A stretch of DNA of 63,989 nucleotides, filler included, from Stramenopiles sp. TOSAG23-6 (GCA_900128565.1; 3 parts of 3 records of this genome joined end to end with filler, not necessarily neighbours in it); one strand, 5' to 3'. Positions 14,614 through 40,870 are shown, numbered from the whole stretch's first letter. Program-made: numbers and translations. Notes: generated by a model not told the origin, from the sequence alone.

Positions 14614-16376
14614 TTATTTCAAATCAGATTTTATTTTTTTCATTAATATCATAAATTCTTCTACAACTACTTTCTCGGCATAAATCATTGATTTCACATG
14701 TGACCATATACCAACATCATTTTTACTATTCATTTCATTTTTAGCAACATCAAAAACATCAAATCTTTTTTTTGCTTTTTTTGTCTTCTCAATCAAAAAC
14801 TTCCCAACCTGAAAGAGACATCTGAATAATGTATTTTGGAAAAATATTTCAAAAAAAAATCGTTAGGTACGAAATTTCGTACGAAAATAAATTCGATTTT
14901 TTTGTTAAAAAAAAAATAAAACATACACGCTGCTTCATTCTGTGGACTAATACCAATACTACTATTTTGATCTATCCTATTACCATAAGCAAGTTGGATA
15001 CTATTTTCATCTTCAAACTCAAGGGTTGACATTAGAATAACACGCAACGCACCTGTATTGTAGGAAAATATTTCAAATTTGTTTTGTTAGGTAAAAAATT
15101 TTTATAAAAAAATAAATTCGATTTTTTTGTTGAAAAAAAAATAAGACATACCTAGTGTAGTTGGCATCGCACCAAGTGACGTCACTATTAAAGGAGTTTC
15201 AGTACCAATATCAATGCCGCTTTTATAAGCTTTGAAACATCGTTGATGAAACTGAATCATATTTTGATTCTCAGAGTTATTTTTTATCTTTATTTTCTTT
15301 TCTTTTGTTTCATATACATCCAATACACGACATTTTGGTAAACGTTTTACAGCATCACCTAAACTCATTTGTAAAGAAGCTTGTGGCTGAACTATAATTT
15401 TATTCCCAATAAAGTAAGACGCAGTAAATCCATACTGAGCCAACAATTTATCATCTCCAAGCCATGATCCATAGCTAATGTAAATTTGTTCACCAACCGA
15501 AATATCAGAAATTAACTTTACTTCATAATGAGTAGTATCATTATTCGATACAATTGCATTTGGCGTATGACTGTGATTCAATAAATCAAACAAAGGAATC
15601 ATCACTCTTTCTTGATAATTGTTTTTGGTACCCAATTTCCTACCTAATTCTGAATATGTATCGAATGTACCGTCATGAAAATCAAATGATCGAGATAAAA
15701 CTAATGATAATACATATTCAAAATCATGATGAGCAGTAAAACCAATACCACTTACACCAACATCAACAGAAGTAGCCGGATTTATATAAAGTTCAAATGC
15801 CCGTTTTTCGTGTTCTTTCCTCTTCTGCAGTAGAGTATGCAAAGTAGTGCCTTTAATAACATTTAGCATCTCTAAAGACCACTTATACATATCTGACGAT
15901 TGCGGTAGACTCTGAATGTAAGTAGACAACCAATCGTGTTTTTCTTTACATAAATTCGAATTTGTATTTTTTAGTTGTTTCTTTAGGTAAAGCAAAAATC
16001 GTGCAAATGCTATAGTTTGCCTATCAAGATCACAACCCTGACTTGTATCTTCTTGGAATAATATATCACTATATACACCATCTTCATCAAAGTACGAGAG
16101 AAGAAAATCTTTCCGTATTGCAAGCTTCTTAGGAACTTTGAAAATGGAAGTACCCTTTTTAATTATTTTTGAGCTAAATACACCACGGCCCTGACCAGGA
16201 GCTTCTCTGATTTCTAAAGACTCTTCAATTACACCACCCCTTTTTAAAACTTCGTCATACATTGAAGGGAATACATTCTTAATATTGTATATATCATTAA
16301 TAACAAATGAAAACACAAAGTTCCTCAAAAGGAGAAACAAGAAAAGACCCACTTTCAACTTACTTTCGGGGTTCAT
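14614..16376 (-). CDS. SET-domain lysine methyltransferase, SETD3/Rubisco-LSMT type; 3 exons
   Basis: GQGRGVF, SRSF, MIPLFDLLNHS, GEQIYISYG, LLAQYGF motifs; spliced C-terminus ISPQNEAALFRCL. Confidence 0.88.
14829..14926 (-). mobile_element. Introner-like intron GT-AT (98 nt)
   Basis: T|GTATGT...GTACGAAATTTCGTACCTAAC...AAAATACAT|TA joins NEAA-LFRCL into ORF 14614. Confidence 0.85.
15053..15151 (-). mobile_element. Introner-like intron, canonical GT-AG member (99 nt)
   Basis: AG|GTATGT...CCTAAC...CAATACAG|GT restores TTLG-ALRV. Confidence 0.9.
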
Positions 16377-16645
16377 GTGATTTTACGGACTTGTTTTTTC
16401 TGGTACCTGGACTCTATCCACAGTAAAAATATAGCGACTAACACACCCACGAAAATTGACAATACTATTAATGTAAGCGAAGGCATTGAGATCTTAATGC
16501 GTTGTATACTGGCAAGAATGATCTACTTCGGTACCTATCTTAAATATTTGTGTTCTTTCCGATTTATTTCGATTTCGAGATTTTTTTGAGTCGAAGTCAG
16601 CCGTCAGCTTCAAAATATCACCCTATCCCTATAACCCTAACCCTA

Positions 16646-17691
16646 TTAACTCATTCGGACTCGTTCTTGACACACTGCAATATACCTCAAATTCATTCCA
16701 GATCCAGAGGACGAATTAGACCAAAATTTTATACATTGACGCAACGCATCTAGCCCTTCTAATTTTCTATCTTGAATACTATCGCGACTAAGTTCAATCA
16801 TATTTTTTGGACTTTTTTCTAAAGTTGCGATACCTGCAACAAGCAATACATCAATTAAGTGTGTATTTTGGAAAAATATTTCAAAAAAAAAAAAACTAAA
16901 ATTTGTTAGGTACAAAATTTCGTACGAAAAAAAAATCAAATTTGAAAAAAAATAAAACATACGTTTCTTTCGAGTTGATTCCGTGTAATGCATATTAATA
17001 ATCTCATCGACCCACTCCATATAATCTGAGACAGATATCGGATGCTCTATTGTACGTGTGGTTTGGTCTTCAAAATTCAATGATGTTACGCATTGCGATA
17101 CTTCATTCTCCATATCGATTGCAATATGGATTGTGAAAAAATATTTTTTTTTTACAAAAAACTAAAAAATTCGTTAGGTACAAAATTTACTATGAAAAAA
17201 ATCTAGCTAAAAATTAAATTCTGAAAACGTACATCTTGAAGATGTTTTGTAAGAGTTTTGATAGCTTTCATGTTTTTCTCTAGTAACACTCGATGTTTAT
17301 ATAGTAGGCGTTCCTTAAGACCATCAAAAAAATGCAGTGGTGTTGAAATCCCGTTCTCTTTGGTAAATGTATCATAGATACAAGGAACCCGACTTGCAAC
17401 ATTTATCAGAGATGATATAGCGTTTTCACACCGATGCTCCGTATTTAACCATTCTTCATGGAATTTCATGATGCGTACGAATATACGATTCCAGAATTTT
17501 AGAGCAGATATAATACTGCGAGAAGCTTTTGTGGGGCTAATCTGATTTTCTATATTTATTAGAGATAAATTATTGTCTTTGGTTTTTGCCGCATCACGTC
17601 TCTCTTTTTCTAAAACTCTAGCCTTTTCTCGAGCTTCCCTATTTCGTAGGAGCTTACGTTGGTTTGCAGTATATCCATGATTTCCTTCCAT
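16646..17691 (-). CDS. C1orf109/AIRIM-like protein; 3 exons
   Basis: FDGLKERLLYK and SVSDYMEWVDEI..HYTESTRKKHLI resemble C1orf109 motifs FPDLKERLRRK and SVADMLEWLQDI (recognised from memory). Confidence 0.65.
16861..16962 (-). mobile_element. Introner-like intron GT-AC (102 nt, in frame, no stop)
   Basis: AC|GTATGT...GTACCTAAC...AAAATACAC|AC. Confidence 0.8.
17126..17232 (-). mobile_element. Introner-like intron GT-AT (107 nt)
   Basis: GAT|GTACGT...GTACCTAAC...CACAATCCAT|ATT restores HLQD-IAIDME. Confidence 0.85.
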
Positions 17692-17987
17692 GGAACTTCA
17701 AACAATATTTAAGGCAATTCTTCTATAACAATCACGGGCGCCTATACAATATATTGAAAATAACCTTTTAATATCCTCAAGTCGTGTGTGGAATGAGTGA
17801 GAATAAAAAAGGTATAGCGCTTCGAACGGCTTCGTTTCTGTCAGGATTTTTTGATGTCCGAGGATTTCGTGTTTTGCTACCGGACCGACGGTTACCCAGT
17901 GAGCGTAAAGAAGATGACATAATTCTTTTACAAAAAAGAAAAGATGAAAAAAGGCCATCTTAATGGCATGTCGATTCCAGCGAATCA

Positions 17988-20900
17988 ATGAAAAAGAACA
18001 AAGGTGGGAATCGCCCCAGGGGGTTCATCTCATATGATCCTTTTGCTGATATGGCTGGCAGAAGCGGCTCTACAAAAGTAAAAGAGGTTCAAGGAGAAAT
18101 TTCTGATCATGTGAAAGCTTTGACCGATCCAGTTATTGAAGTTGGAACACCTCCAGAACCTCCGACAAAAGGTTCAGAAATTCAATCGAATCCCAATTCG
18201 AAACCTGAATCAAATCAGGAAGACATTACTCCTAACCAAAATAGTCAAACAAGTCAAAAAGTGCCTCAGTATAATATAGAAACTGTAGGTGAAGAAGACT
18301 TTGAAGATGTCTTTGACTCGGATGATTCAACAAGGTCAATGACACCCAGAGGATCACCAATCCCACGAGGCAGACGAAATAGAAAACTGTTTTATGAAGG
18401 CCGAGAACTTGTACAATTAGAACTAAAAGCTGCAGAACAGACACAAGTTTTGAAAGAGAAACGGCGAATTTATGAAGAAAAACAAAAAAACAATTCTCTT
18501 GCGCTTGTACGTTTTATATGAATTTCTAATTTAATTATTTTTTTCATACGAAATTTCGTACCTAACAATTTTTTTAAGATTTTTGTTGAAATATTTTTTC
18601 ACAATACTTCATCGTCGATACGTGCAACGCTTAAAAGAAATTGACCAAGAGGATAAAGAATCCATTAGAGCCCAAATAGAAAATACAAAACTACTTACTC
18701 AAAAAAGGGAACTCCAATTAGCTCAAAGAAAAGTCGATTTATTACACGAAGAAAATCTTCGTAAGCATGTACGTTTTCGAAGTTGAATTTCGAATTTATT
18801 TTTTTTTCGTAAATTGTTTTTGTATCTAACGATTTTTTTTCTTTACTAAAAAACAATTTCACAATGCATGACCGTGATATTGAGCTCGAGAGGGTAGTTG
18901 CAAGAAAACTTCAATTAGAAGAAATTCAGGAACGGAAAAGGCAAATGTATGCTTTATTTTTTTTCAATTTCGATTTGTTTTCGTACTAAATTTTGTACCT
19001 AACGATTTTTCTTTTGAAATATTTTTTCAAAGTACATATCGGAGCAAGTTCGATTACGCAAGCTACTTTTAGAAGAAGTTCAAGAAGAGAGAGGTCGAAG
19101 GGCAAATGCGAAAGCAAACCGTTTGCAGGAAGTTCTTGCAAAAGCAGAATATGTGCGTTTCCTTCATGCATTTTAAATTGTTTTTTCGTACTACATTTTG
19201 TACCTAACGAATTGTTTTAAACCAAACAAAAAAAAATATTTTTTCGCAATACATCTTCAAAAGGAAATTAACTCTGGCGCTTTTGATGCCAAAGACAGAG
19301 AAACCTTCGCTGCTGAGTTTCTGAAAGAAGATACAGATAATGATAATGTGTTTCATTTAACCGAAGAAATTTCTGGAGCACGACATAAAGAGTTTATGAA
19401 GCGGCAAAGACAGAATGAGGAAGAAATGACCCAGCTAACAAATAAACGTGAAATTTTAGATGTTGAACGTGCAAAGTTATTGGATAAAAAACAAAAATTA
19501 GTATCAATACAAAACAAAGGAATTGAGTTTATGGCAGATATTGAAAGAGGGCTGAAATCAGAGTCTGATTTATCTCCAAGACCATTGAATGATCCCAAAT
19601 CAATCGATGAAGTTGAGATGAAAGATAACAAAACTGTGAAAGAATTTGCTGAAGACCTGAGAACAAATCGACCTTATAGACAAAAGAAAATACAATCTTT
19701 GAAAGCAGACCTTTTTGTTTTAGAAGCTGAACGTATTCGAGCAAAACCGAAGTTGCATATGCTTCCAGAATACGATGGAAGACTCGGAATTTCTTCTTAT
19801 CCACCAGAAAGTCAAGAAATGGTAAAATGGCTTCGTGAGATAACTGTGGAGCTTTGTGATGAGATAATGAATGCATTTTATCTTCGAGAAATAACATTTG
19901 AAAATGTTGAAAAAGAGCGAATCCTTTATGAAGAAAGTAAAGCTCTATTAGTAAAGCGTTATTCGGCACGAGCTACTGATCGTGCTATTGATGAAATCAC
20001 CGCGACTGCGGTTTTGGATGTTGTCCAACAGCAAATTCGAGAAGTGCATAAAGAATTTTCGTATTTGTATGAAGTTGCAACACAGATGAGTAATCAGCTT
20101 CTTCTGAACACAGTACTGGAACGGCGATCTGTCACGAGCATACTACATATAGAAAATACAAAGGACAACACAAAAATGTCAGATTTTACTAAAGCATGGA
20201 AAGCTAGAATATTAGAATTCTGTAGAAAACAACAAGTAAAGAATCGTGATAAGCGTGATCAATCAGGAGAAAAAGTTCGCCTTGATCCTCCTTACCAAAA
20301 TTCTCCTCTAATTCCGTCAAATAAAGGAAAAGCTGTTGTGCTTCTTGTTGCAGAAAAGGGTAAAAAGGCTCTTGAAAAAGAAGAGAAACCAGAGAAAAAA
20401 GGTAGAAGTTTCTTTATGAAACGAACTGGAGATTCAGATTCTTCTGAAGATTCTGACGATGAGAACAATGCATTAATTAAGGAGAAAGATGTCACTTACT
20501 CGAAACTCCACGACTCGGATACCATAAAAGTTTGGGTTCCTAATTATGAATCTGAAAAGGGCTTAAATAATACCAGTAAAGAAGCTGCACACAAAGAAGA
20601 AAAAAAATTCTTCAAGAATGTGCATTACACGTCAGCTTCATTTTCAACACCTAAGGAATATGGTGCTGTAACATGTTGCTCATTAGGATATCACAGACAG
20701 ACCCTTCTTGCTGTTGGTACCGCATCTGGTGTTGTTCTTATATATCGCGTTAGTTTGCCACCTGCAAGACTGCTACATGTTCTCGAACATAAAAGAGTTA
20801 TTCCTAAAAAGAAGACATTAGATATGAAAACTTTTGATCCATCGATGGTTCACCGCAAGAAGAAGAAAAAAGCAAAAAAGTGTGCAGCGGATAGTATAAG

Positions 20901-22426
20901 TTGGAGTTTCGATAGTATGCAATTATCAGTAGTACATGTTGATGGGCAAGTGAGAGTATGGTCACTGGCCCATCACTCTACAGAGAAAGCTGAAACAAAA
21001 GAAGAGATGCAAAATGCTCATGGTGTAGTGGATGATGCTGAGGATGTCAAACCCCAGATACACTCGTACCCATCGATAGAATTATCAAATATTGACTTTC
21101 AACGCTGCGCGGTAAATAATAATATCGGTTTAAATAAAAAAGGCAAAAAGACTAAAAAGTCAAAACAAAAAGAGAAAGAGGAACTCGTATCTTTAGAGCC
21201 GATATTATCATGTTTTCACCCTGCAGCGACTTTTCTAGGTTTCCAGACGTCAATAATGTGTGCGGTACGACATGGACATGTAATAAAATGGAATGGTTTA
21301 GATGAAACTGAAACTACGCCTCTTTTATTCAATAATATCTCACCATATGAGCCACTCTACAGAGGTGAAGAAGCGAATGACATTAAAGAACGGCTCGCAC
21401 AGGAAGTCAAACGGGAATTCTTTCAGTGTCATAGGAATACAATTATTTTAATGAATTTTTTGGAAAATACAACATCTACAATGGTCACTGTTGACAAAGC
21501 TGGACTAATTTGTGTATGGAATTATAATACCGATAGCTTTTCTGGATACGGATGGTTTGTACCTTTTAAACAATATCAATTAATTTTACCTATAACAGAT
21601 TTGAATACAGATATTAAAAAAAGCAAGACAAAAAGGAATAAAAAAGGAAAACAAAAGATTGATATTTTATCTGCAAGATTAACAATATCAGGAAATGAAA
21701 TTATTATGATAGCCAAGACTCCACAATCCCATGGAGGCAACAGAATACTTATTTTTGATCCTGTGAAAGGACAATTTTTGAGGTCACAGATAAAGCTTTC
21801 ATCATCCATCAATTCTCATTATTTTACAGTTTCACCAGTGCTTGATGCCACTTGTTCAGACTATGTATATTTATATAACAAGGGCAAATATTTGGTTTAT
21901 TCACTGGCCACAATGAAAAAGGTAAAAGAAGTAACGTTGTTAGCTGATACAGGAAAAGAAAGGCAGACAACACAGCCATATATTACACGAAATCATAGTC
22001 AAATAGTCATTTGTGTAAAAGGTACAACAGACGTCAAAATCAGAACAATTGTCGATACAAATTCATTTGAGAACCCACCAACAATATTTTCTAAATTCGA
22101 GCCCCAGAAAGATAAAAAGGAGGGATATTGTATGTTATCATTTTCCCACACTTTTTTAAAAATTTATTTATTTTGTACCAAATATTGTATCTAACAAATT
22201 TCAAACGTAAAACATATTTCTTCACATTACTTCTAGTTTTGAATCCGATGATGAAGAATATCGTGAAAACTTAAAATTTAGACCGCGCTTTCACTCAGCT
22301 TCTTCCGAATATAGAGTCCGTCGCTTTATGTATGACATCTCAATTTTTAACGTAAAGAAAGAAATTAGAAATATAGTGTCTGATATTGTCGCTGAAGCAA
22401 CAGAGAGAGCAAAAACACTTTGGTAA
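17988..22426 (+). CDS. Large coiled-coil + WD40-repeat protein; 6 exons
   Basis: One continuous frame after removing 5 family introns; WD-like segments LAVGTASGVVLIY, VHVDGQVRVWSL, VTVDKAGLICVWNY. Confidence 0.75.
18507..18609 (+). mobile_element. Introner-like intron GT-TT (103 nt)
   Basis: CTT|GTACGT...GTACCTAAC...CACAATACTT|CAT; an in-frame CAT 3 nt further is an alternative end. Confidence 0.8.
18769..18869 (+). mobile_element. Introner-like intron GT-AT (101 nt)
   Basis: CAT|GTACGT...TCTAAC...CACAATGCAT|GAC. Confidence 0.8.
18947..19037 (+). mobile_element. Introner-like intron GT-AT (91 nt)
   Basis: AT|GTATGC...GTACCTAAC...AAAGTACAT|A. Confidence 0.85.
19153..19254 (+). mobile_element. 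Introner-like intron GT-AT (102 nt)
   Basis: TAT|GTGCGT...GTACCTAAC...GCAATACAT|CTT. Confidence 0.85.
22130..22232 (+). mobile_element. Introner-like intron GT-TT (103 nt)
   Basis: ATT|GTATGT...TCTAAC...CACATTACTT|CT; the nearby AG (22235-22236) gives a frameshift and early stop. Confidence 0.75.
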
Positions 22427-22429
22427 ATC

Positions 22430-22509
22430 ATTCGTTTTTTTTGTTAGGTACAAAGTTTACTACGAAAAACAAATAAATTTGAAATTCATATATTTGCCAA
22501 ATTGTATAC
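22430..22509 (-). mobile_element. Orphan or degenerate family copy between convergent genes
   Basis: Minus strand reads GTATAC...CGTAGTAAACTTTGTACCTAAC; no clear 3' terminus. Confidence 0.55.
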
Positions 22510-22724
22510 TTTGATATTTTTTTATCGAGTTCTCATAAAGTATTTTAATCATATAGTATTTTCTTACAATTTAGCTCAATAGACAAGCACAAGAAGATTC
22601 GAAATGTAGACTGTGGAGTAATCGATTTTTGTGGAAATAAAGTAGAACGAGAACGGAATGAGTAACGAACGAAACCAGATATTAAAAAAAAAAAAATTGT
22701 TAATTTACTCAAAAAAAAATGTTT

Positions 22725-23552
22725 TTATTTCTTACAATTTTTACGTCCGGATGAGTGAACTTTCGTTATGTATGCAGAATGCAAGGCAGCTATAAAATCA
22801 TCATCATTTGCTAATTCTAAAAGAGTAGCTTTAAGCTTTGTCTTACTCAGTACCAACTTTTCCTTATCTATAGAAGAGTCCGGAATATTATCAACTACAT
22901 TTCCGGCAAAATTCGCCACATTTGTCAGGCTCTTCTTCTTTGCCTTCTTCTTCTTTTCTGAAACAACCACATGATCTATTTTAATTGGAGCATTTGCAGC
23001 TGCAACAGCAGCACTTTCTTTTAAGACACGCTCACGTTCTTTTTCAAAAACTTTTAAATCCGCTTTTGTTAATGGCGTCCCCTGTTGCAGCGACGTGACT
23101 AATTTTTGCAATAAAGCTGTAACAACTTGACGTTCACCAGCATCATGAAACCAAAATGCATCTATCGCTGCGTTGTCTTTATTTGGGCGAACCATTAAAA
23201 AATCGCCGTTGGTTTCTAGTTCTAACTCCGCAGTAACGTCTTTACCCATGTCATCCGGATTATTCCGATTCAAAATAACCAACATATATTCAGGATTANN
23301 NNNNNTCACAATATACATGGTTCCTTCTACGTCCATGGAACGCCACTTCATTTCATCTAATTCAAACGCATATGCTGCAACGTAACTTGAATGTCCAAGA
23401 ACAGAAATTATTTTCTTATCAACACGTTGCAGCGCTTTGAGATTCGCGGCTTTCGCTTTTTTCTGGTTATGCTTTAATTTCAAATCTTTTCCTCGTTGGC
23501 TCGCATCAGCTGTAGTATTAGCTGGATCAACTTGTCCACTATTATTAGTCAT
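22725..23552 (-). CDS. DCP1: mRNA decapping enzyme subunit Dcp1 (EVH1 domain + C-terminal trimerisation helix)
   Basis: NLKALQRVD..I..V..HSSYVAAYAF....WRSMDVEGTMYIV...LVILNR...FWFHD; C-terminal LKATLLELANDDDFIAALHSAY. Confidence 0.9.
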   Translation of the reverse strand: MTNNSGQVDPANTTADASQRGKDLKLKHNQKKAKAANLKALQRVDKKIISVLGHSSYVAAYAFELDEMKWRSMDVEGTMYIVXXXNPEYMLVILNRNNPDDMGKDVTAELELETNGDFLMVRPNKDNAAIDAFWFHDAGERQVVTALLQKLVTSLQQGTPLTKADLKVFEKERERVLKESAAVAAANAPIKIDHVVVSEKKKKAKKKSLTNVANFAGNVVDNIPDSSIDKEKLVLSKTKLKATLLELANDDDFIAALHSAYITKVHSSGRKNCKK

Positions 23553-24307: not shown

Positions 24308-24407
24308 NNNNNNNNNNNNNNNNNNNNNNNNNNNNNNNNNNNNNNNNNNNNTTAATTAATTAANNNNNNNNNNNNNNNNNNNNNNNNNNNNNNNNNNNNN
24401 NNNNNNN
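24308..24407. other. Artificial contig linker N-TTAATTAATTAA-N
   Basis: 100-nt N run containing a six-frame stop cassette. Confidence 0.95.
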
Positions 24408-24462
24408 CGTACGAAATTTCGTACCTAACGATTTTTTTTTGAAATATTTTTCCAAAATACAT
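24408..24462 (+). mobile_element. 3' half of introner-like intron (acceptor AT) at contig start
   Basis: CGTACGAAATTTCGTACCTAAC...GAAATATTTTTCCAAAATACAT|CAT. Confidence 0.85.
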
Positions 24463-27400
24463 CATATACAAAGGTGGAAAGCTTTGCGATTAACAAATCT
24501 AAAGTCATCTATTGAGTCTCACGCACGTGCACAGATCTCATACCATCAAAGTTTAAAGAAACAATTTGAATGTTTATTAAATGATATGGAAAATAAAAAT
24601 TTTGGAGGATCCAAAAATGACCAAGCTAAACCTTTGATGCAAAATTCAATAGCTCATTGTAAGCAATATACTTCTACTGATACTGTATTCTCTGAAACTG
24701 TTACAGAGAAAGACATACCACAAAAATGTATGTCAAATGATAGGCTCAACCAAAAATTGGAACTGTCATATAACCCTAACCCTAACCCTATAGAACACAT
24801 TTCATCGAATGACAATGGACAAAATCCATCGAATCCATCGAATTCGATTACTAATAAATCTAGTGATTTTGTTGCTGTTTTTGCCATTTGTGTGGTCGAA
24901 GTGAGGCATATTTTTCGTGAAATAAGGAACCCATATATTGTTATTTCAATGGGTGGAATTGAGCATCGCGCATCATGTACAAGAATGTATGTTTTTATGA
25001 TTCAATTCATTTTTTTTTAAATTTAGTATGAAATTTTGTACCTAACAAAAAGTTAATTGTTTTTGAAATATGTTTTATCAATATATGTTTAATGATCGAG
25101 CAGAATTTGGAGAAACATTTTGTTTTACTATTTATTCAGATACTGAGATGTGTAGAGTTGCGTTACATGTATGTTCTATTTTTTTTTCAAATTCGATTTT
25201 TTTGCGTACGAAATTTTGTACCTAACGATTTTTTTTTTTTGTGAAATATTTTTCCAAAAGATATGATGAAAGCAAAGGATCAATAGGTTCAATTCTTATT
25301 AGTCAAAAAGATTTGAATAATCACAAAACGACATGTGGCGAATGGTGGTGGATTTTCCATGGTTTATATAGTGGTGAAGTTAGAATACGTTCTCATATGA
25401 ACTTTGGTAGAGCTACGCTAAATAAAAAAGATGGTCATTTATCATTACATGATTTTGGTAAATTGTCAGTAGAAGGAAATGATCGAAATTCGGGTGCACG
25501 AAATCTGAGAAACAAAGTCAGTAGTGATAGTAGTAGACGATACACTGGTATAAATTCTTTACATGTTTATAATCAACAAAATGCAGGGTTATTACCAGCT
25601 AATGGAACTTTTCTCCATTCTCCTTCGTATTTAAAGAATAATAGAAATGTTATTTCAGGATGGATGGATAATAATAATATTGATGATAATATCGATAGAA
25701 GTAGTGAAAGTTCAAGTAATAGAAAATCAAATATTGATAGAATAGAAGAGAACCATAACCCTCATATTATCATAGGCAGTCCATATAATAGAAAATTAAC
25801 TGAAGGGAACTGTGATAAAAATGACTCTATATATGATAATTTAGGATTTCAAATTCCTCCCCACTGTCTCGGACTTGCTCATTTTATAGGCCTTGAGCAA
25901 TGTAGAGAAATTCAACAATGTTCCCGATGGATTCAATTGAGCGGTGGCTATGAAAATGGCGTTTTTTCTATGCTCGAGCAACACGCAACACCTGTTGATG
26001 CATCTCAATTCGCATCACCTGTAGATGTATCCCGACCTTGCCGTGTACTCATGTATGTTTTTTTTTTTTTCAATTTCTAAATGTTTTTTTTTTGGTTTTC
26101 GTACGAAATTTCGTACCTAACAAAAAAATCAAAAAAAAAATATTTTTTATACTACATATCGTCGGAATTAGGAGCTTTATTGTTTGGTGGAATTCCAACT
26201 ACATTTCGATCGGAGGCCTATATGTGTCTTAGTGGCGCTGCTGCCATGAAATTACGACAACCAAAAGGTTATTATCAACAGCTTTATGACGGATCGATTG
26301 ATCCAATCGTTCGCAGGCAAATAGAGGACGATCTTGTGAGAACATTTGCTAAACAGCAAACTCGTATTAATGTGGTGAAAATCGATACAACTATAAAAAG
26401 AGTATCGAGTGAAAGCATTTTACCTATTACAAAAAACGATAGTACTGTTCATTTGAATATTTCAGATGAAACCACAACTAAACAGGAACCAGAGGCTTTA
26501 GCTGCCCTTCGTCGTATTTTATTGGCACATTCATTCAGGAATTCTGTTGTTGGATACTGTCAAAGTTTGAATCATGTTGCGGGTTTTTTACTTTGTCTTG
26601 GTACTATTCATGAAGAATGTGTTTTCTGGATACTTTGCGCTGTGACAGAACGTTTATGTTGTGATTATTACGTACCTTCAATGTCTGGTTTACATCGGGA
26701 TCTTCGAGTTCTTCGCGATTTAATGCAGAAACGGCAACCAGAATTAATGAGACATATGGATAGATTAGGTGTACCACTTGAAATGTTAGCATCTGGTTCA
26801 TTACTGAGTCACTTTGTGTTACATCTTCCGACCCATACTGTGCTTCGTATGTTGGACATAGTTTTATGGCGTGGATCTCCCATGCTTCTTTTGACGGTTT
26901 TGGCGTTGATGCAAATGTCGCGTATGGATCTGCTTTCTGCACGTACTGCTGGGGAAGTCGCAACACGATGGAAATCATGCCAGGAGCGTTGTTACGATGC
27001 AGAAGGTTTAGTATCTCGCATTCGAGCAGAATGGATTGAACTTGGTGAAGGGACAATAGAAGAATTGCAAGCGAAACATGCAGCCGCGGCAAGATCTGAA
27101 GCTGAAGCATCACTACATAGTGCAGCTTTACGCCGTTTTGTTGGTGATGACACAACTTCAGGTGATGGCTTACGACAGAGTGTGCTTGACCAAGCGCATT
27201 TCACACAATTATATGGACGTTTTGTTGAAGCTGCCGCAGCACCCGCAGGAAGATCTGCTGATCATCGTAGGTTAGATACATCTAGCTTTCGCGCATTGAT
27301 GTTGCGAACTTTCTTTGGTCTTCCTGTGAATAGCAGCCGGAGAACACTTGATGCTCTTTTTGAAGCTTTTGATGCCAATGGCGATGGAGAGTTGGATTTA

Positions 27401-28026
27401 CAAGAATTTATTACTGGAATGGGTATGATCAGTCCAACTGCAACAATTGAAGAAAAACTTCGTTTTTGTTTTAATTGTTATGACGCAGAGAAATCAGGGC
27501 AAATAGAAAAGCAATCACTGGCTGGTCTGTTACATACTATTGTTGCTGTTGCTATGCTTATGCTTGGACATCAAAATACACTATCAAAAGATGTAGTTGC
27601 AACGTTACTTGATCATGTATGTTTTATTTTTTTTCAAATTCGATTTTTTTTCATACGAAATTTTGTACCTAACGATTTGTTTTGAAATATTTTTCCAAAA
27701 TACATTGTCCGAGTTCTTCGCTGTCTTTTGTAGAGTTCTGTGAATATTTATACGCACAACCTCTTGTATCTGAGTGGTTGAATCTTCAGCAGCGTTTGAA
27801 TGACTCAGGCATTATTATTAATTCTGGTATGAAAGAGATGAAAAATATGTCTGGGACAATATCCAGTAATACGACGAATAATCCAATTGACGAATATGAG
27901 CAAATAGAATATAATAATTATGGAAATACTGAAATAAATGAAAATGAACATCATAAATTTGGGGATTCGTATGCTGAAAAAATGTGGATAGACTGGCCAC
28001 ATCATGATGGACGAAGTGGGCATTAA
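24463..28026 (+). CDS. Rab-GAP (TBC domain) protein with a C2-like domain and EF-hands; 5'-partial, at least 5 exons
   Basis: GGIPTTFRSEAY, QIEDDLVRTF, VGYCQSLN (TBC fingers); DANGDGELDLQEF EF-hand; C2-like NPYIVI..EFGETF..VALHD built across family introns. Confidence 0.88.
24987..25086 (+). mobile_element. Introner-like intron GT-AT (100 nt)
   Basis: AT|GTATGT...GTACCTAAC...TCAATATAT|G. Confidence 0.85.
25169..25264 (+). mobile_element. Introner-like intron GT-AT (96 nt)
   Basis: CAT|GTATGT...GTACCTAAC...CAAAAGATAT|GAT; the AG 4 nt upstream is out of frame. Confidence 0.85.
26053..26157 (+). mobile_element. Introner-like intron GT-AT (105 nt)
   Basis: AT|GTATGT...GTACGAAATTTCGTACCTAAC...ACTACAT|A. 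Confidence 0.85.
27617..27705 (+). mobile_element. Introner-like intron GT-AT (89 nt)
   Basis: CAT|GTATGT...GTACCTAAC...CCAAAATACAT|TGT. Confidence 0.88.
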
Positions 28027-28153
28027 TTGAGGATTTATAAAATGAGGTTTGATTTGGAATGTTTCGAATTTTTTGATGGTAATGAATTGAATTTGTTTTT
28101 GATTGACAAAATTTTTTATGACTTTTTAATTTTAAATGTAGATAAAACTTTTA

Positions 28154-29358
28154 TTATTTAGCTTGGTCTAATTGTTTTTGAGAAGGTAGCTTCGGTACCG
28201 GGGGAATTGGTCTATTTCCCATCAAGAATGATGGACGTCTTGGAACAGGAGGTGAAAGGCATGTATAGTGTTTTTTTATTAGAAGAAAACCCGTTAGGTA
28301 CAAAATTTCGTACGAAAAAAAATTTCAATTTGAAAGAAAAATCAATTTTGAAAACGTACGAAATGGTGGGTTACGAATTGTTGCAGGAAAAGCACAATTT
28401 TTAAGATCTATTCGAGAAACCTTTATCGCTCCAACGAGTCGTTCCGGCAACTCTTCCATACTTTGTGATTCTATCAAATATCCAAGTTCTAATTCCAATT
28501 TTTTCGCACAACCGGATTTGTCTTGTGAAAAAATATTGTTTTTTTGGTTAAAAAAAATGTAAGGTACAAAATTTTCATACAAAAAAAAAGAAATGTCTAA
28601 TGTAAGTGGACAACATACACGAGTCCTAAAATTTTTCTAGCAATCTGAGAGGAACAAACATCACAATCCACTTCAAAATAATTAGGACCACGAAAATATG
28701 CACATTTTAATTTTTTACCAATAATTGCAGGACGTTGGACACCCAGACTTTGAAGCGTTTTTTTCATTAACATTGGTGCTGAAATGACTTTACAAACAAA
28801 TTTCATACGGTTATTACGATATTCATTTGTTCCATTTAAAATGGAATCCAACAACTTTTCGAATTGAGGATCAGAATCCTTATCTAGCGTTTTTTCAAAT
28901 AGGTTAACAACATTTACATGCTTCTTGCCAAAATTGATTTGCCAACAAAAGACAAAAAAGAATGACTCGGCGTGACTTTTGATAAAATCATGAAGTTCAA
29001 GAATTCTATGAGACACATGCTGTAGAGATTTATCACCCACATCAAGCACAGAAAACCCACATGGGCGAAACGCACAAGGTTCAGGCTCTACTTTCCTTTT
29101 ATCTATAAGATATGTAGGACCTCGTAATAACCAGCCGCCACCAGCTCTTCCAGGTGTGATTGGTGCAGCTGGAGACATTGTGTTTTTACGAATACAGTCG
29201 GTTCCGATTTCCTCAGCATCTGGATTAAATGTAGTAATATTTCCAGGTAACCAAACATCATAAGCAGTCTTTCGTACTGGTGCTGTACGTAAGGGACCTG
29301 CAACTGGTGTTTTCATTCCACTGGAATTAGTAAATGAGTTTGTAAAGGATTTGAACAT
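28154..29358 (-). CDS. EDR2 C-terminal (DUF1336) domain protein; 3 exons
   Basis: LRGPTYLIDKRK, YRNNRMKF, YFRGPNYFEVDCDV.SS..AR, LIESQ..EELPERLVGA motifs. Confidence 0.85.
28261..28359 (-). mobile_element. Introner-like intron GT-AT (99 nt)
   Basis: C|GTACGT...GTACCTAAC...ACTATACAT|GC. Confidence 0.75.
28518..28618 (-). mobile_element. Introner-like intron GT-AA (101 nt)
   Basis: GT|GTATGT...GTACCTTAC...CACAAGACAA|A restores LGLV-SGCAKKL. Confidence 0.7.
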
Positions 29359-29624
29359 GTCAGTGGTGTATACTTCCGTGGTGTGAAACTAAATACTCTA
29401 TTCAATCAAGTATATCGTAAAAATATATTACAATAGACCTAAAATGCAACGAGTGTATAATTAATTACAGTATTTTAGTTATATAATGTCGTGATTTAGC
29501 TTTCTTTTGGTGATTGACATCTGGAATTGTAGTAGCTACGTATCCAAAATCTCTCGAAAACCGAAACCAAACGAACGAATTTGCTACTTGTAATGACACT
29601 CTTCTTCTATCTACAATCATCAAT

Positions 29625-29685
29625 TTTTTTTTTTAAGTACAAAATTTCGTACAAAAAAAAAACACGAAATAAAAAAATATTTCAA
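29625..29685 (-). mobile_element. Orphan remnant of the family core in an intergenic region
   Basis: Minus strand reads TTTTGTACGAAATTTTGTACTTAA. Confidence 0.5.
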
Positions 29686-29769
29686 TAGTTAGTGTTTCCT
29701 TTCTTCGAATCAAATCTTCATCTCAAAGGAAGATCCTAATCTAGGTACCTAAAAAAAGAGACTCGAACA

Positions 29770-31358
29770 ATGTTACGTACTACATTAGCAGTATCCAAAT
29801 CGACACATATCTTGTCTCGTATAGCATTTAGATTTCCCCAACCTTGTATAGGTCTTCCATTTCAACGTCATTTTCATTCCACAACTTCAGTGAACAAGCA
29901 AGTTGCGTTTACTCTACCCGACGTCGGTGAAGGCATCGCAGAAGTTGAAGTTTTACAGTGGTATATCAAGGAAGGCGACGAAATTTCCCAATTTGACAAA
30001 ATATGTGAAGTGCAGAGTGATAAAGCTACGTTAGATATAACGAGTCGTTTTGATGGTACGGTTGCCAGTCTTTCATATGGTGTTGGTGACATGGCACAAA
30101 CCGGAAGTACATTGTTCATGATTGACGTTGAGGGGGGTTCAGACGATATTGAATCAGACGATATTGAATCTACGCCGCCCCCACCTAAAGATAGTTCACC
30201 AAACTCTTCTTCTACACCTAATGATACATCAATACATCGTGAGAAATCACTTCCTTACAACAATTCCGATGGAAAAGTTCTGGCGACACCTGCAGTACGC
30301 AGGCTTACTAAAGAAAATGAATTAGACATAAGTCAAATAGTAGGTACAGGTAAAGATGGTCGTATTTTAAAAAGTGATGTTCTTGAGTATATGAATAGTT
30401 CAAATAGTGATTCACAAATGTATGTGTCGTCACCGCCTGTGTTTTTAACAAATCAAGAGGATAAAGTAGTTCTAATTAAAGGCGTACAACGTGCTATGCT
30501 TGCAAAAATGAATGAAGCTCTTAAAATTCCACATTTTGGTTACAACGACGAATTTTCAATGACGGCACTTTCTACTGTGAGAAATGATTTACAAAAAAGT
30601 GTTGGAGATAATCGTGGTATCAAAATTACTTCAATGCCTATTCTCATGAAAGCAGCATCTCTCGCGTTACATCAGTTTCCTGTCATAAATGCCAGTATAA
30701 GTGATGATGAAACGTCAATCAAGCATCATGCAGCACATAATATAGCTTTTGCAATGGATGGACCATCAGGTTTGATTGTGCCTGTGATTTCACACGTGAA
30801 TCAAATGTCAATTGTGGAAATTGCTGAGGAAATGACACGTATCATGTACGTCATTTTCATCATTTTTCAATTTTTTTTTTGGGTAGGAAATTTCGTAATT
30901 AACAAAAATTTTAAATTGTTTTGAAATATTTTCACAAAATACATAGCAATCGGTCAAAAAGGAAAATTGAGTAATGCTGAACTTACAGGAGGAACTTTTA
31001 CACTTTCGAATATTGGTAGTATTGGTGGAACATATGCATCGCCTATTATATTACCTCCTCAAGTTGCTATAGGTGCACTTGGAAAAGTTCAAAAACTTCC
31101 TCGATTTGGAGAAGATGGTACGTGCATATGAATTTCTAATTTAATTTTTTTTCATACTAAATTTTGTACTTAACGATTTTTTTTACGGAAAAAAAATATA
31201 TGTTTCATAATACATGTGAAGTCGAGGCAGTAGAAATTATGAATGTTAGCTGGTCGGCTGATCACAGGGTTATTGATGGGGCTACAATGGCAAGGTTTTC
31301 TAATGCAATGAAGAGTCATGTGGAACATCCAATGTCAATGCTTTCAAACTTACGATAA
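29770..31358 (+). CDS. DBT: Branched-chain 2-oxoacid dehydrogenase E2 (dihydrolipoyl transacylase), mitochondrial; 3 exons
   Basis: Lipoyl domain EVQSDKA, E3-binding [18 protein letters not shown], catalytic [10 protein letters not shown] and [12 protein letters not shown]. Confidence 0.93.
30846..30944 (+). mobile_element. Introner-like intron GT-AT (99 nt)
   Basis: AT|GTACGT...CACAAAATACAT|A; the AG 2 nt downstream causes a frameshift. Confidence 0.9.
31118..31215 (+). mobile_element. Introner-like intron GT-AT (98 nt)
   Basis: G|GTACGT...GTACTTAAC...TAATACAT|GT restores [20 protein letters not shown]. Confidence 0.9.
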
Positions 31359-31407
31359 CTGTACAATTTTATTTTGAAATTAAAAATTATTTTGTGTTGT
31401 CATATTT

Positions 31408-34400
31408 CTACTTTTTATTTGCTAATATTCCTTTAAGCATGCCACCTTTAACAATACCACGAAGTTTTCTTGAAGGCTTTTTCTCTTGTGATGAAATTTC
31501 ACTGAGCTTTTGAAAAGCTGCGAACCAAAGTTTTGATATTTCCAGAGAAGTTGCTTCTAAATCTAGAGTTCTCAGAGGAGTATGTAGAGATAAACAATTC
31601 GCACTATCTGTCTCTTTACCATGACTACGTGTAAATACCTTTGAAGCATGACCATCAGTAATATCCGAGATGTGAGATAATTTGATTCCACTATCTGATT
31701 TAAGCTGAGAAGCAGTTTTTGCACGCATTTTTGTTACTTTTCCGACTTTACACCATCGAACAAAACCATCACTTTCATCTTTTGTAAAATCAACCCAAAC
31801 AAATCTTTGATTAGGAGCACCTCGACGTCCATGTTTCCTAAATTCCGCACCTTGAATAAGCATCATTTTCATTTCTTCCAAGTTTTGTTCTTTTATTTGT
31901 TTGTGGCGATGTTCACTAAATTCTTTTTGATTGGTGTTATCGGTAACTGACTCTTTTATTTCTTCTTCCGTTTTTTCTTCAGAATATTTTTCTGTTTCAA
32001 TGCCCATTTTGTTTTCTTCAAGACTTTCAGTTTTATTATCTACATTAAAAACAGATGATTCTCGAAAGTTTTCTATTTCAGCATCTTTAGTGTGCAGAGC
32101 TACAAATTCTTTGAATAATTGCGACTCTTTATTTCCCCAAATACCATCTACTTTTAAATTTGCTCCATGCGCGTTGAGCATTTTCTGAAGAGCTTGAATG
32201 ACAGAGTTATCTAATTCATTGCCATTTATTGGTAGTGGAGAATGTTCAGCGCTATTCTTATTTAAATACTGTTTTAGTTTAATTATGGTTTCCGCGCCTA
32301 CTATACCATCTACCTTGAGGGATTTATGTCCGACAATCTCTTTATTCAAAAATTCTTGGAGGCTTTTCCGTGATACAATATTTCCAAAATCAATTTTTGA
32401 TATGAAATTTGCTGCATTCTTTGAATGTTTTCTTTTTGACAAATCTACAAATGATGATTGTTCAGATGATTCATCTGTTATATTTGTACTTCCAAGTTCT
32501 CCACTATTAACATTGTCTTTGTCTTCGAGAGAATAATCATCGGAAGTATTACTTGCATTTTTATCAGTAATTGATTTTGATTGTGATTTATTATTACTAT
32601 TGTTATGTTGTTCATTCCTCTTGTCGTTTGAGTAATTGTTACCTTTTTCACTCCTCTTATCGTTTGAGGGGTGATGTAATTCAGACAACGTTTTCCCTTG
32701 AGATTGAGTGTTAGGTTGCTCTCGACTAGCAAAAAGTTTTCGTTTTGATGGTGATGTGTCAGAAATACTACGATAATGACCTCTTTCTCTTCGCGAGATA
32801 TTAGACTCTTTACTAGATGTACCAGACAACTCACTAGGTAGACTTCTTCTATGTGAACGTTTTTTGTTTCCAAGTAAATGATCATATTCAAATTCTTTAA
32901 GATGTCTATGACTACGTGGAAATAATGCTAATTGCCGCTGCAACTCCATCAAAATATTTGCACCCATACCTGCACATTCATGTTTAGTAAAAAAATATGG
33001 TTTGAATTTGAAATTTGTTAGGTACATAATTTTCTATGAAAAAAAAATAATTTTGAAATTCATGATGAAAACATACATGAGCCTTTTGAAATGAACCATT
33101 ATATGACCTAAATGGTGTCTCATGAAACGGTTTAGACTTTCTCGTCATATTTTTAGTATGACTTTTAGTATGACGTTTATCAGATGTCGTACTTTTTTGT
33201 TTTCTTTTTGTTTTTTTTTCAACACTTTTTCCGACACTTGAAATTACTAATTTACTTGGACTTACAGTGTAATCTATGTAATGCTTATGGCCATGCAATC
33301 GATCAGAATGATTACTTTGATCGTGAATATGACTTGTTTCTTTCATAAAGATATAAGTACCCGTCAAAGGATCGCGTCCATGTTTTATAAAGAAATATTT
33401 TAGAAAAAAAATTGTTAGGTACAATTTTTTTTTCTGAAAAAAACAATTAATTTGAAATGCATTATGAAAACGTACACTATCTTCTCGCCATATTTTCATA
33501 AGTTCTAATCCAAATTTTTTAGCTGCTCGAAGTAATACAGCCGGGTTTGTCGCAGCAGCATACCTCGTTCTAAATCCAGCAACGTCTTCAGGGCGAGCTA
33601 AAACTCTACCTATATGTTGTAGCAAACCTTTAAGCATATCTACTGGGCGAGCTTGATTAAAAGAATCAGCGAATGCGCCAAGAGCAAATCGAGCAATCGC
33701 ATCTAAGAAATGACTGAAATGCATATGGGAGTTGTAACTTACACGAACTTCACTATTTTCGAAAGAACTTGTTTTAAATTGCTTTTGTTGCGCATCATCA
33801 TTTTGACCAATTTTGTTTATATTATTCGATGTTTGTTCCTCACTTGTTTGATTTTCACATGCACGTGTTGGTTTTTGCATTCCACCACAACAACAAGCAG
33901 CTAAATAACAATCTCCATGTGGTGTGAAGATATATGCCAGATTCGAAATTCGTTAAGTACAACAAACTAAATAATTTGAATGAAGCAAAAAGAAAATTAA
34001 TTTTAAATTAATAATGAAAACAAACGTATTCAATCATTGGAATTTGTAAATTAGAAAAATCCAAATCTTGAGTAAGTTGAAGGAAATCTTGATAGCTAAA
34101 TATACCAAGATTTTGTCTATTTGAAGATCTTTGATTTCCATGATCATTTTTAGATCGTTTAGAATGCCAAACTTCGGTGCCTAAACCCGAATTCCAAGAA
34201 GACCAACCACCCTTGTATGAATTAACAGTCCGGTCTCTTTTTGGTCCTATATTTCGATCTCTATGTAATTGTTGTTGCTTTGTTGGTGCATAAAAATTAA
34301 AAATTTGCCATAAAGGATCTCGAAATCGATGCATGAGAGCCAAAACAGCTGGATCTCTCAACTGGGTAGTTTGAGTCGCCCATTTTGCAACATTCCAACG

Positions 34401-35915
34401 TTGAGCTCGGGGAAGTATTCTGTCAACTAAAAGTTCAAGAACAATTTGTTGAGGTCCATTTGGCAATTGAACTCTTTTTGGTAGCATGCCTAAAGAAACC
34501 CTAACAAGAGCATTTACAAAATCATCAAAGGAGAGCCTTCGACTACCTTTACCTTTTGTGATTCCACCTACTATGCGTCTTCGACCTCGACCATCACCTG
34601 AGTCTTTGTGTCTTCCTCGTGATTCTGCATAAAATACAACATTTGCTTCAGCTTCTTCAATTAATCCTCGATTTCGTGCATCATCTGGATGACAATTTCT
34701 ACCTAGTAAGCCACAGTCAAATAAAAGTTTACGCCAACATCGACTATGAAGTCGTTGTAATGATAGTGGATCACCAGTTACACAATAATATGTGAATACC
34801 AACCATATATTGTGAAAAAATATTTTACATTCAAATGTTTTGTTAGGTACAAAATTTGGTACGAAATATTTTTTACATTCAATTTTGAAAACGTACATAA
34901 TTCTCCTTCAAGGTTTAGTTGCTGTTTAGAATTTGGTGTGTGAATACTTAAAGATGGTGGTGAAACAGATTCTGAATAATTCTCATCCCAATTTTGAAGC
35001 GGGTGTGATGGAGGTGGAGACATCTGAGGAGAGCTTATACGTGTACTATTTTTACTCAAAGATTTCGGAGATTTTCTCTTCACTTTTGTTTTTGTATCTC
35101 CATCGTCTATTACACTATTATCAGCACGTTTCTTTTTCAATTCTTTGATAATTACCTTCTGATTTTCTTCATCCTCTGTACTGTATAAAGATGAAATGTC
35201 TTTTTCCGGTGATGATTGCGTATCTACATGTAAAAGAGACGTTTTAATTCCTCTCGGTGTTAGGATAAGTAAAGAGTTATCGTGTCTGGGTTGTGAAAGT
35301 ATTGTGAAAAATATTTTACATTCGAAATTCGTTAGGTACAAAGTTTGGTTCAAAAAAATAAATTTGGAATTCATTACGAAAACATACAAGAACTCGAATC
35401 ACAAAAGCGCTTTCAGGCCAAACGCAGTTATCTTGGTCTAGAAGGACGTAAGTTGTTGCCTGCGAGGGAGAATGTGGATCATTACTAACAGTAACGCCAT
35501 CTTTAACACACCAGTATCGCATAGCGTCGCGTCGAAGATCACTGAAAGTATACGAGCTCGGAATCCAACTAGAAAACTCAGTTCGAGTTACAGCATGTAT
35601 TACCGTGACTTTTGATGTTTCTGTAGTACTACCTAACGGCCGAAGACGTATACATGGCAGAAAAGCATATGCTTTCATACTGTCTTCTTGTTTGCGTGAT
35701 ACAGGCACGCCATCATCTAATAAAAAGGAATAATGCCTCGGAAGGCCGTCTAAGTCCCGGTGTAAAAGACGTCGAATTTCAGAAAGACGAGTATCATCGT
35801 ACGTTGTCACAAAACCTATATAACCCATATTTTCTATTGCTACTCGAAGGGTTGCCGCCATAGATGGTGCACTACTAGAACCAAATAGTCCCGAGGCTGG
35901 AATTGACTCCTGCAT
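31408..35915 (-). CDS. Multidomain protein: ubiquitin-like N-terminus, EF-hand-like helical region, two peptidoglycan-binding-like repeats, C-terminal PLC-type PH domain; 6 exons
   Basis: One continuous frame after removing 5 family introns; LKVDGIVG and LKVDGIWG motifs; GAEFRKHGRRGAP..RFVW...CLSL..PLRTLDLEA......WF (PH). Confidence 0.75.
32980..33076 (-). mobile_element. Introner-like intron GT-AT (97 nt)
   Basis: CAT|GTATGT...GTACCTAAC...ACTAAACAT|GAA. Confidence 0.85.
33380..33475 (-). mobile_element. Introner-like intron GT-AT (96 nt, in frame, no stop)
   Basis: AGT|GTACGT...GTACCTAAC...ATAAAACAT|GGA. Confidence 0.8.
33917..34025 (-). mobile_element. Diverged introner-like intron GT-AT (~109 nt)
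   Basis: TAC|GTTTGT...GTACTTAAC...CACCACAT|GGA. Confidence 0.65.
34805..34896 (-). mobile_element. Introner-like intron GT-AT (92 nt)
   Basis: AT|GTACGT...GTACCTAAC...CACAATATAT|GG restores EGEL-WLVFTYYC. Confidence 0.85.
35297..35387 (-). mobile_element. Introner-like intron GT-TT (91 nt)
   Basis: CTT|GTATGT...GTACCTAAC...CACAATACTT|TCA. Confidence 0.85.
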
Positions 35916-40839: not shown

Positions 40840-40870
40840 TTTCTTTATTTTCTTTCTACTTTTATAACCA

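Follow-up and report, generated by a model that had tools for sequence, protein, structure and literature searches.

Introners are the best documented route of bulk intron gain in eukaryotic genes. Those of Micromonas pusilla and Aureococcus were reportedly described by Huff, Zilberman and Roy in 2016, and Henriet et al. are said to have described, in 2019, non-canonical introns of Fritillaria borealis that derive from miniature inverted-repeat transposable elements (MITEs). Here we analyzed a stretch of DNA of 63,989 nucleotides (the window), in which a repeat of ~100 nt occupies the position of apparent introns in nine genes. From the sequence, we judge it likely that these repeats are introner-type elements with a 2-bp target duplication, the downstream copy of which would be the acceptor.

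In the excerpts of PMC11282704 and PMC9860276 used here, algal introners are short, non-autonomous repeated introns that make a target-site duplication, carry one splice site and take the other from the duplicate. The duplication is 3 bp in Micromonas and 8 bp in Aureococcus, and these elements have clear inverted repeats and canonical AG acceptors (same excerpts). The elements in the window resemble them in that one splice site appears to lie on the element and the other in the duplicate, so that the message keeps its length. Unlike them, they have a 2-bp duplicate, inverted termini of 4-7 nt and non-AG acceptors in 26 of 28 copies. The introners of Chrysochromulina sp., a haptophyte, have a 4-bp duplication, carry the 5' splice site, co-opt the 3' splice site and have no clear inverted repeats, according to the excerpted text of Gozashti et al. 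2022 (PMC9860276). Here too the donor would be carried and the acceptor drawn from the duplication, and inverted repeats are not clear; the duplication is 2 bp instead of 4 bp, and unusual 3' ends are not mentioned in that excerpt.

The introns of the tunicate Fritillaria are transposon-derived, with ends made from the duplication and the inverted repeat. They break the AG rule and are handled by a spliceosome with widened 3' specificity (PMC11282704; Soo et al. 2026, PMC13326754; both in part). Both of their ends are non-canonical, AG-AC and AG-AT being the commonest, and the adaptation involves duplicated U2AF subunits (same partial texts). The elements described here share with them a probable transposon origin and, at their predicted ends, the broken AG rule. 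They differ in their strict GTAYGT donor, so that the acceptor alone varies. In the part of Farhat et al. 2021 (PMC7789003) used here, the direct repeats of the introner elements of Amoebophrya measure 3-5 nt and the inverted repeats 8-20 nt, the termini are highly variable at both ends, and U1 small nuclear RNA was not detected. Repeated introns, direct repeats across the exon-intron borders, inverted repeats and non-canonical termini are common to both cases, whereas the window has a constant 2-nt repeat and a canonical donor. Nonconventional introns of euglenids have neither a polypyrimidine tract nor spliceosomal signals, and they are excised in circular form (PMC11282704, in part). They too have variable borders, duplication-like junction repeats and intron ends that can pair; in contrast to them, the copies in the window have donor and branch signals, and T-tracts are abundant.

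Three features appear to be new here: an acceptor that is not AG, a duplication of 2 bp and a MAST-3-like host. The principle of carrying the donor and co-opting the acceptor is already known from algae. Our literature search found no paper joining introners and MAST-3, and nothing relevant on introns of MAST-3 or Incisomonas or on non-canonical stramenopile introns. In the portion of the single-cell genome paper that was covered, introns come up in the methods text only, and its three text-readable supplements are silent on them. PMC8163842 does not mention introns.

A repeat family flanked by a duplicated dinucleotide

The window is AT-rich (~35% G+C) and gene-dense, with standard stop codons and open reading frames (ORFs) of up to 3285 aa. 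A repeat search showed the ~100-nt repeat recurring on both strands. When an nhmmer profile built from 18 seed copies was run against the window, it gave 35 element-strand matches at E<0.01; weak opposite-strand matches were also seen, and their source is the internal palindrome of the repeat. We tabulated 27 complete copies by coordinates, and most counts are based on these. A 28th complete copy (2775-2926, minus strand) is diverged and was spotted by eye; it is included in all counts given out of 28. The complete copies are 89-152 nt long and all lie in the sense orientation of their genes. Other copies are interrupted by one of the two assembly gaps or run off the end of the window, and another five fragments lie outside clear exons.

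Pairwise identity among the elements is ~0.68, with a best pair at 0.89. The 38-nt flanks of different copies have a mean identity of only 0.37-0.38 and are unrelated. Because the flanks are unrelated while the elements are alike, the copies represent separate insertions and not the duplication of a segment. The likeness spans the full length of the element, including subfamily-specific segments and stretches without a known splicing role. Whole-length sequence shared at unrelated positions, as expected of introners, is thus what the 28 full copies in nine genes display.

From 5' to 3', a copy consists of GTAYGT, a T-rich stretch, a palindrome of the CGTACGAAATTTCGTAC type, a T/A-rich stretch, the box ...TTTTYCAMAATAC and two bases, after which the exon begins. 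A branch-site-like box, TACCTAAC, overlaps the palindrome. The 5' hexamer is GTATGT in 12 copies, GTACGT in 11 and another sequence in 5, so that 23 of 28 donors have one of the two main forms. The exact TACCTAAC box is present in 18/28 copies. The consensus 3' end is ...ACAATAC followed by 2 nt; 21/28 copies end in AC ahead of the duplicate, and 12 have the exact ATAC (these box and end counts were taken from the listing). The donor and the branch-like box are the best conserved parts of the element. The inverted termini are short. They read GTAT/ATAC, or GTATGT against ACA(A)TAC (6/7 with one indel), and reach CATGTA/TACATG only when the host flanks are added.

The two nucleotides before the GT are identical to the two nucleotides after the terminal AC in 19 of the 27 tabulated copies (AT 14, TT 3, AG 1, AC 1), or 19/28 with the diverged copy. 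To obtain the expected number, the 3' dinucleotides were shuffled among copies 200,000 times. The shuffles gave a mean of 11.07 matches and P = 5e-6 for at least 19, so the excess is not due to independent AT preference at the two positions. A grid of other registers gave 0-7 matches. Among the 28 copies the 3' terminus is AT in 20, TT in 3, AG in 2 and AC, AA and CT in one each. Eight copies have a 3' dinucleotide other than AT, and five of these match the upstream exon.

These results bear on an earlier, sequence-only reading of the window, which had claimed 19 matches among 29 complete copies. Its 19 matches stand, and its denominator becomes 27, or 28 with the diverged copy. The cases it named were correct: TT/TT at 18507-18609, 22130-22232 and 35297-35387, AG/AG at 15053-15151 and AC/AC at 16861-16962. 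Its short inverted termini, GTAT or GTAC at one end and ATAC at the other, agree with the donor and 3' end counts above. It had also proposed a 2-bp direct duplication with AT preference and had itself named, as an outcome that would overturn this, a match rate no higher than independent AT preference predicts. The duplication is borne out by the fixed register and by the excess that stays after shuffling.

A 3-bp duplication was rejected. The third base matches in 11/27 copies, which reflects a preference for C at -3 without covariation (termini read by eye). In copies whose last element base is not C, the upstream base likewise does not covary with it. The target itself is preferred: C stands at -3 in 15/28 copies (P = 1.5e-5) and G follows the duplicate in 14/28 (P = 8e-5), giving a symmetric C-AT-G. 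The nearest relatives of the TT/TT copies 18507 and 35387 and of the AC/AC copy 16962 carry other dinucleotides; the dinucleotide therefore follows the insertion site and not the subfamily. In three of the nine mismatched copies (14926, 34025 and 2926), the sole difference is a synonymous third-position transition in the exon copy.

Predicted intron boundaries and choice of the 3' end

Removal of the sequence from GT to AC plus two bases leaves 27/27 tested junctions open; for the 28th copy, arithmetic on the coordinates gives an in-frame junction. Once the exons are joined, five introns disappear from one continuous open frame of 3960 nt, four from another of 3225 nt and five from a third of 4029 nt. 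The earlier reading had proposed that splicing takes out the element with one copy of the dinucleotide and leaves no scar; this removal restores the frame at all of these junctions. The reading frame fixes intron length modulo 3 only, and exact positions were tested by homologues. Three junctions also fit protein homology and the continuity of Pfam profiles. In the E2 gene, junction 30846 aligns gap-free to its closest homologue, P0121 (50% identical). Exon 1 matches positions 2-131 of the Pfam 2-oxoacid_dh profile, exon 2 matches 136-186 starting at its residue 4, and exon 3 matches 191-231; the profile numbering continues without a break across the first junction and, at the second, is within one residue of a variable loop. 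The EDR2_C profile runs from 9 to 176 and then from 178 to 213, and the split codon is position 177.

Where the two dinucleotides match, moving the boundary by 0-2 nt leaves the message the same, and the AT class could equally be read as AT...AC. The mismatched copies decide. At junction 28618, a cut before GT gives V and the shifted boundary gives K. The 60 homologues have V (26), I (19), A (7), M (3), C (3), L (1) or F (1) at this position, and none has K. The cut-before-GT model scored above the shifted model against 143 of 149 homologues. At junction 31118, a cut before GT gives G and the shifted boundary gives C; the homologues have mainly G or D. At 63729 the shifted boundary creates a stop codon. 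An intron shifted 2 nt to the left (AT..AC, TT..AC and the like) is therefore ruled out at 28618 and 31118 by homology and at 63729 by the stop. A 1-nt shift would give E at 28618 and C at 31118 (codons read by eye), and neither residue occurs in the homologues. Two nearby AGs were tried as acceptors: the one 2 nt downstream of the 30846 intron end breaks both frame and alignment, and the one 6 nt upstream of the 18947 intron end breaks the frame.

Because of the mismatched copies 28618, 31118 and 63729, we place the upstream dinucleotide in the message and the downstream one at the end of the intron, as the sequence-only reading had proposed in calling the acceptor the duplicated host sequence. 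With good confidence, we predict that the sequence removed is GT...AC+2.

Only two of the 28 copies end in AG, and seven contain an AG, between box and end, that is predicted to go unused. In copies with a correctly located box, the distance from box to end, read from the listing, is 33-58 nt. Given these unused AGs, this spread and the intron lengths of 89-152 nt, the data agree neither with a scan for the first AG nor with a cut at a set distance from the branch box. The constant feature near the 3' end is the 3' box, which ends in a pyrimidine at -3. A scan of the window for conventional introns returned false candidates only, many of them arising from single N bases, and every recognisable intron in the window has the same architecture. 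On very short exons Pfam was of little help: nothing usable was obtained for a C1orf109-like gene, and the TTL gene gave weak, non-contiguous TTL matches.

We also considered an RNA-structural ruler for the choice of the 3' end. RNA folding is weak, with a mean z of -0.76 against shuffled controls. The terminal helix has a mean predicted G1:C pair probability of 0.36, exceeding 0.75 in 10/27 copies. Covariation is absent from both the terminal helix and the core palindrome (77.5% of cells paired, 77.9% in shuffles), and scans of the window with Rfam and for tRNAs gave no matches. With weak folding, a helix in part of the copies and no covariation, such a ruler is unproven.

The model that we propose is as follows. 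A short non-coding mobile element would become a spliceosomal intron wherever it inserts. Insertion may duplicate 2 bp of the target, preferably AT and often within C-AT-G. The element would supply a strong GTAYGT donor, T-rich tracts, the TACCTAAC box and the 3' box ...TTTTYCAMAATAC. The cuts would fall just before the element's GT and just after the downstream dinucleotide, so that one copy stays in the message and removal is scarless, as frame and homology suggest. The pyrimidine at -3 of the acceptor would be the last C of the element, with -2 and -1 supplied by the target. The resulting acceptor would mostly be CAT, also CTT, CAC, CAA or CCT, and rarely CAG. The host splicing machinery may place the 3' cut relative to the 3' box or by another AG-independent cue.

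We regard as evenly balanced the wider proposal that the major spliceosome of the MAST-3-like host does without AG. It would make the 3' cut two bases past ...ACAATAC and skip upstream AGs, which would open nearly any coding site to scarless insertion. All or most introns of the genome may then be such elements, and gene models that assume GT-AG would be systematically wrong. In published introner families the acceptor is a canonical AG that either the element or the target supplies; in the window the duplicate would serve as acceptor whatever its sequence. If confirmed by RNA, this would be a free-living stramenopile with AG-independent 3' splice choice and a fully canonical donor. Compared with the tunicate and with Amoebophrya, it would be a less complex case and would offer a cleaner system in which to study how a 3' splice site is defined. 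Gene models of uncultured marine grazers that assume GT-AG would truncate or distort every gene with such an intron.

Mode of spread and competing explanations

We think it fairly probable that the elements move by cut-and-paste DNA transposition. A target-site duplication of fixed length, here 2 bp, is what cut-and-paste elements and MITEs produce. Terminal inverted repeats of cut-and-paste transposons are usually 10 bp or more, and a few transposon superfamilies make 2-bp duplicates. Tc1/mariner, whose target duplication is TA, was rejected: the duplicates are AT, TT, AG and AC, and TA is found in none. MITEs insert in either orientation; all 28 full copies are sense, and one antisense fragment of 34-45 nt was found in an ORF. 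The elements are MITEs by definition in part only. Of the non-autonomous DNA transposon (MITE) suggested from the sequence alone, the 2-bp duplication stands; the assignment itself is tentative, given inverted termini of 4-7 nt, the lack of a visible autonomous copy and the 28/28 sense orientation, which does not by itself point to DNA transposition. Selection against unspliceable antisense copies could explain the sense-only pattern.

The copies are unevenly distributed. Other long ORFs, 23.1 kb in all, contain none (Poisson P = 2e-7); these are 4711-14568 (9.9 kb), 36133-39546, 42562-43830, 44880-46187, 52096-54372, 54561-56165, 56371-57477 and 58328-60592. In the nine host genes, copies are often just 77-190 nt apart. 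Chromatin, expression and age are possibilities for this uneven spread. Local hopping or gene conversion was rejected, as neighbouring copies are no more alike than random pairs (0.687 and 0.681, P = 0.40).

Several observations weigh against an introner-type element with a 2-bp duplication. Eight of 27 copies are mismatched. When match was compared with copy divergence, a check that the sequence-only reading had put forward, matched copies were marginally closer to the consensus (0.77 vs 0.75, one-sided P = 0.07). The 3' dinucleotide is still AT in six of the nine mismatched copies (n=28), so part of the AT excess could belong to the element or to splicing and not to the target. The inverted termini are only 4-7 nt, and the terminal helix and core palindrome do not covary. 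The copies are not young: the best pair reaches 0.89, and on average a copy is ~0.75-0.77 identical to the consensus. Support for the predicted splice junctions comes from the reading frame and, at three of them, from homology. No transposase family was found among 35 Pfam-scanned ORFs of at least 150 aa, out of 50 listed, within the window, in line with the earlier statement that none is visible; no long, autonomous copy was seen within the window either. Finally, the one close relative found (P0241, 98% identical) carries the same intron. An orthologue search with exon 33476-33916 gave no match.

The elements might instead spread via RNA, as has been proposed for the introner-like elements of fungi: excised introns would be reverse-spliced into transcripts, which would then undergo reverse transcription and recombination. 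This is consistent with the sense orientation of 28/28 full copies within genes, with their concentration in some genes and absence from 23.1 kb of other ORFs (P = 2e-7), and with the very short inverted termini and the lack of a transposase in the window. However, reverse splicing predicts no flanking duplication, and the 2-nt match is found in 19/27 copies (P = 5e-6). This match, in which the dinucleotide differs between closely related copies, and the symmetric C...G flanks are signatures of a staggered DNA cut. We consider spread via RNA improbable.

Another explanation is that the dinucleotide is a 2-nt homology required between the target and the element end, or a circular junction. Insertion would be by recombinase crossover or microhomology capture, and the acceptor would be element sequence. 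The AT kept at the 3' end of six of nine mismatched copies agrees with this, as does the relative similarity to each other of two of the three TT/TT copies (22130 and 35387). Against it, the nearest relatives of 18507, 16962 and 35387 carry other dinucleotides, which are not inherited by subfamily, and a constant length of 2 nt is unlike microhomology repair. Homology-dependent capture is quite improbable on these grounds.

It is highly improbable that the copies are immobile, ordinary introns with very strict extended splice signals, whose likeness is convergent and whose 2-nt identity is a splicing requirement. All recognisable introns of the window do share one architecture, with the donor and branch-like box best conserved. 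Yet the similarity covers the whole length, including subfamily segments without a known splicing role; fragments occur in non-coding DNA and one is antisense in an ORF; and 8/27 copies without the 2-nt identity are still in frame. We know of no splicing mechanism that needs the last two intron bases to equal the last two exon bases.

Least probable of all is removal without a spliceosome, either by precise, ciliate-like DNA excision or by a structure-guided nuclease and ligase acting on a terminal helix with a 2-nt 3' overhang: non-AG ends, scarless excision and CATGTA...TACATG termini that can pair (G1:C above 0.75 in 10/27 copies) would suit it, but a spliceosomal-type donor and branch-like box are the most conserved parts, DNA excision does not require all copies to lie on the transcribed strand, as they do, and the helix is weak or absent in most copies and does not covary.

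Two known classes of sequence were also rejected. U12-type introns begin with [AG]TATCCTT and have a branch box close to the 3' end; here the donors are GTATGT/GTACGT, the box is 33-58 nt from the end, and the informative copies place the intron start at GT, not 2 nt before it. Ciliate-type eliminated sequences are TA-bounded, orientation-independent and absent from expressed DNA; here TA boundaries are lacking and all copies are on the transcribed strand.

Host, gene models and listed copies

The MetRS ORF at 52096-54372 is identical in all aligned blocks to the public protein P0001 (EukProt GSMAST32...), and the next best matches are oomycetes at ~48%. By this protein match, the host is a MAST-3-type heterotrophic stramenopile. 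When the P0001 model was compared with the uninterrupted MetRS ORF, four in-frame pieces were missing from it (75, 69, 36 and 27 nt), and three of these have GT..AG borders. In 10/10 homologues, three of the four pieces are retained. The missing pieces look like spurious predicted introns. The protein P0241 matches the first EDR2_C exon at 98% identity over 246 residues, and its last seven residues are those read from the 28518-28618 intron up to the first stop. Because its tail is intron read-through, the relative behind P0241 has the same intron and the prediction missed it. Existing gene predictions appear to miss these introns.

Table 1. Complete and partial copies of the repeat in the window. 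The dinucleotide column gives the exon bases before the donor, a slash, and the termini of the predicted intron.
Feature	Dinucleotides	Position	Strand	Basis
Diverged full copy/intron, 152 nt; mismatch, synonymous	AC/GT..AT	2775..2926	-	by eye; in frame by coordinates
Copy/intron	AT/GT..AT	3030..3122	-	profile, termini, frame
Copy/intron	AT/GT..AT	3228..3343	-	profile, termini, frame
Copy/intron	AT/GT..AT	3532..3628	-	profile, termini, frame
Copy/intron; mismatch, synonymous difference	GT/GT..AT	14829..14926	-	termini, frame
Copy/intron, SET-domain gene	AG/GT..AG	15053..15151	-	Pfam, termini, frame
Copy/intron	AC/GT..AC	16861..16962	-	termini, frame
Copy/intron	AT/GT..AT	17126..17232	-	termini, frame
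Copy/intron	TT/GT..TT	18507..18609	+	termini, frame
Copy/intron	AT/GT..AT	18769..18869	+	termini, frame
Copy/intron; AG 6 nt before end skipped	AT/GT..AT	18947..19037	+	termini, frame
Copy/intron	AT/GT..AT	19153..19254	+	termini, frame
Copy/intron	TT/GT..TT	22130..22232	+	termini, frame
Copy/intron, RabGAP-TBC gene	AT/GT..AT	24987..25086	+	Pfam, termini, frame
Copy/intron	AT/GT..AT	25169..25264	+	termini, frame
Copy/intron	AT/GT..AT	26053..26157	+	termini, frame
Copy/intron	AT/GT..AT	27617..27705	+	termini, frame
Copy/intron; mismatch	TC/GT..AT	28261..28359	-	termini, frame
Copy/intron, EDR2_C gene; mismatch	GT/GT..AA	28518..28618	-	junction confirmed by homology
Copy/intron, 2-oxoacid dehydrogenase E2 gene	AT/GT..AT	30846..30944	+	junction confirmed by homology
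Copy/intron, E2 gene; mismatch	TG/GT..AT	31118..31215	+	homology favours cut before GT
Copy/intron	AT/GT..AT	32980..33076	-	termini, frame
Copy/intron; mismatch	GT/GT..AT	33380..33475	-	termini, frame
Copy/intron; mismatch, synonymous	AC/GT..AT	33917..34025	-	termini, frame
Copy/intron	AT/GT..AT	34805..34896	-	termini, frame
Copy/intron	TT/GT..TT	35297..35387	-	termini, frame
Copy/intron; mismatch	AT/GT..CT	63493..63592	+	termini, frame
Copy/intron; mismatch; shifted boundary gives stop	CT/GT..AG	63729..63849	+	termini, frame
3' part of copy; 5' part lost in gap 24308-24407		24408..24462	+	profile
5' part of copy, cut by gap 48363-48462	AT/GT..	48301..48362	+	profile
3' part of copy, after gap 48363-48462	..AC+AT	48463..48530	+	profile
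5' part of copy, cut by window end	AT/GT..	63937..63989	+	profile
Degenerate copy, donor unclear; between ORFs 46442-46993 and 47075-48358	..ATAC+AG	47012..47093	+	profile
Family fragment, non-coding DNA between convergent genes		22419..22495	-	profile
Core fragment upstream of EDR2_C gene		29613..29689	-	profile
5'-truncated fragment downstream of ORF 40120-40839		40846..40925	+	profile
Core fragment, antisense within + ORF 47075-48358		48013..48077	-	profile

The antisense core fragment at 48013-48077 (34-45 nt) is translated through, and its host ORF is open, repeat-rich and without a Pfam match. It may be an exonised remnant, or the host ORF may be doubtful.

Both 100-nt assembly gaps (24308-24407 and 48363-48462) consist of a 12-nt linker, which has stop codons in every frame, between two runs of 44 N. 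As both sit within repeat copies, the repeats appear to break the assembly. At the gap at 48363-48462, the phases of the two half-copies cannot be reconciled with the ORFs on either side; an exon between two introns may have been lost there, or the join may be wrong. Single N bases occur at 20 places across the window, mostly at 1-13 kb (1111 to 12884, plus 37017), and a run of 7 N lies at 23299-23305. The single N bases disrupt ORF scans and generate false intron candidates.

In-frame tandem repeats were seen within ORFs, with units of 36 nt (47593-47808), 18 nt (58888-59192) and 57 nt (54350-54520). Telomere-like CCCTAA runs occur 12 times (one mismatch allowed), compared with 0.25 expected. 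They are found at 4466, 16621-16645, 24774-24790, 40916, 50723, 57045-57067, 60704 and 63349. Several lie between genes, and the runs may be a promoter motif.

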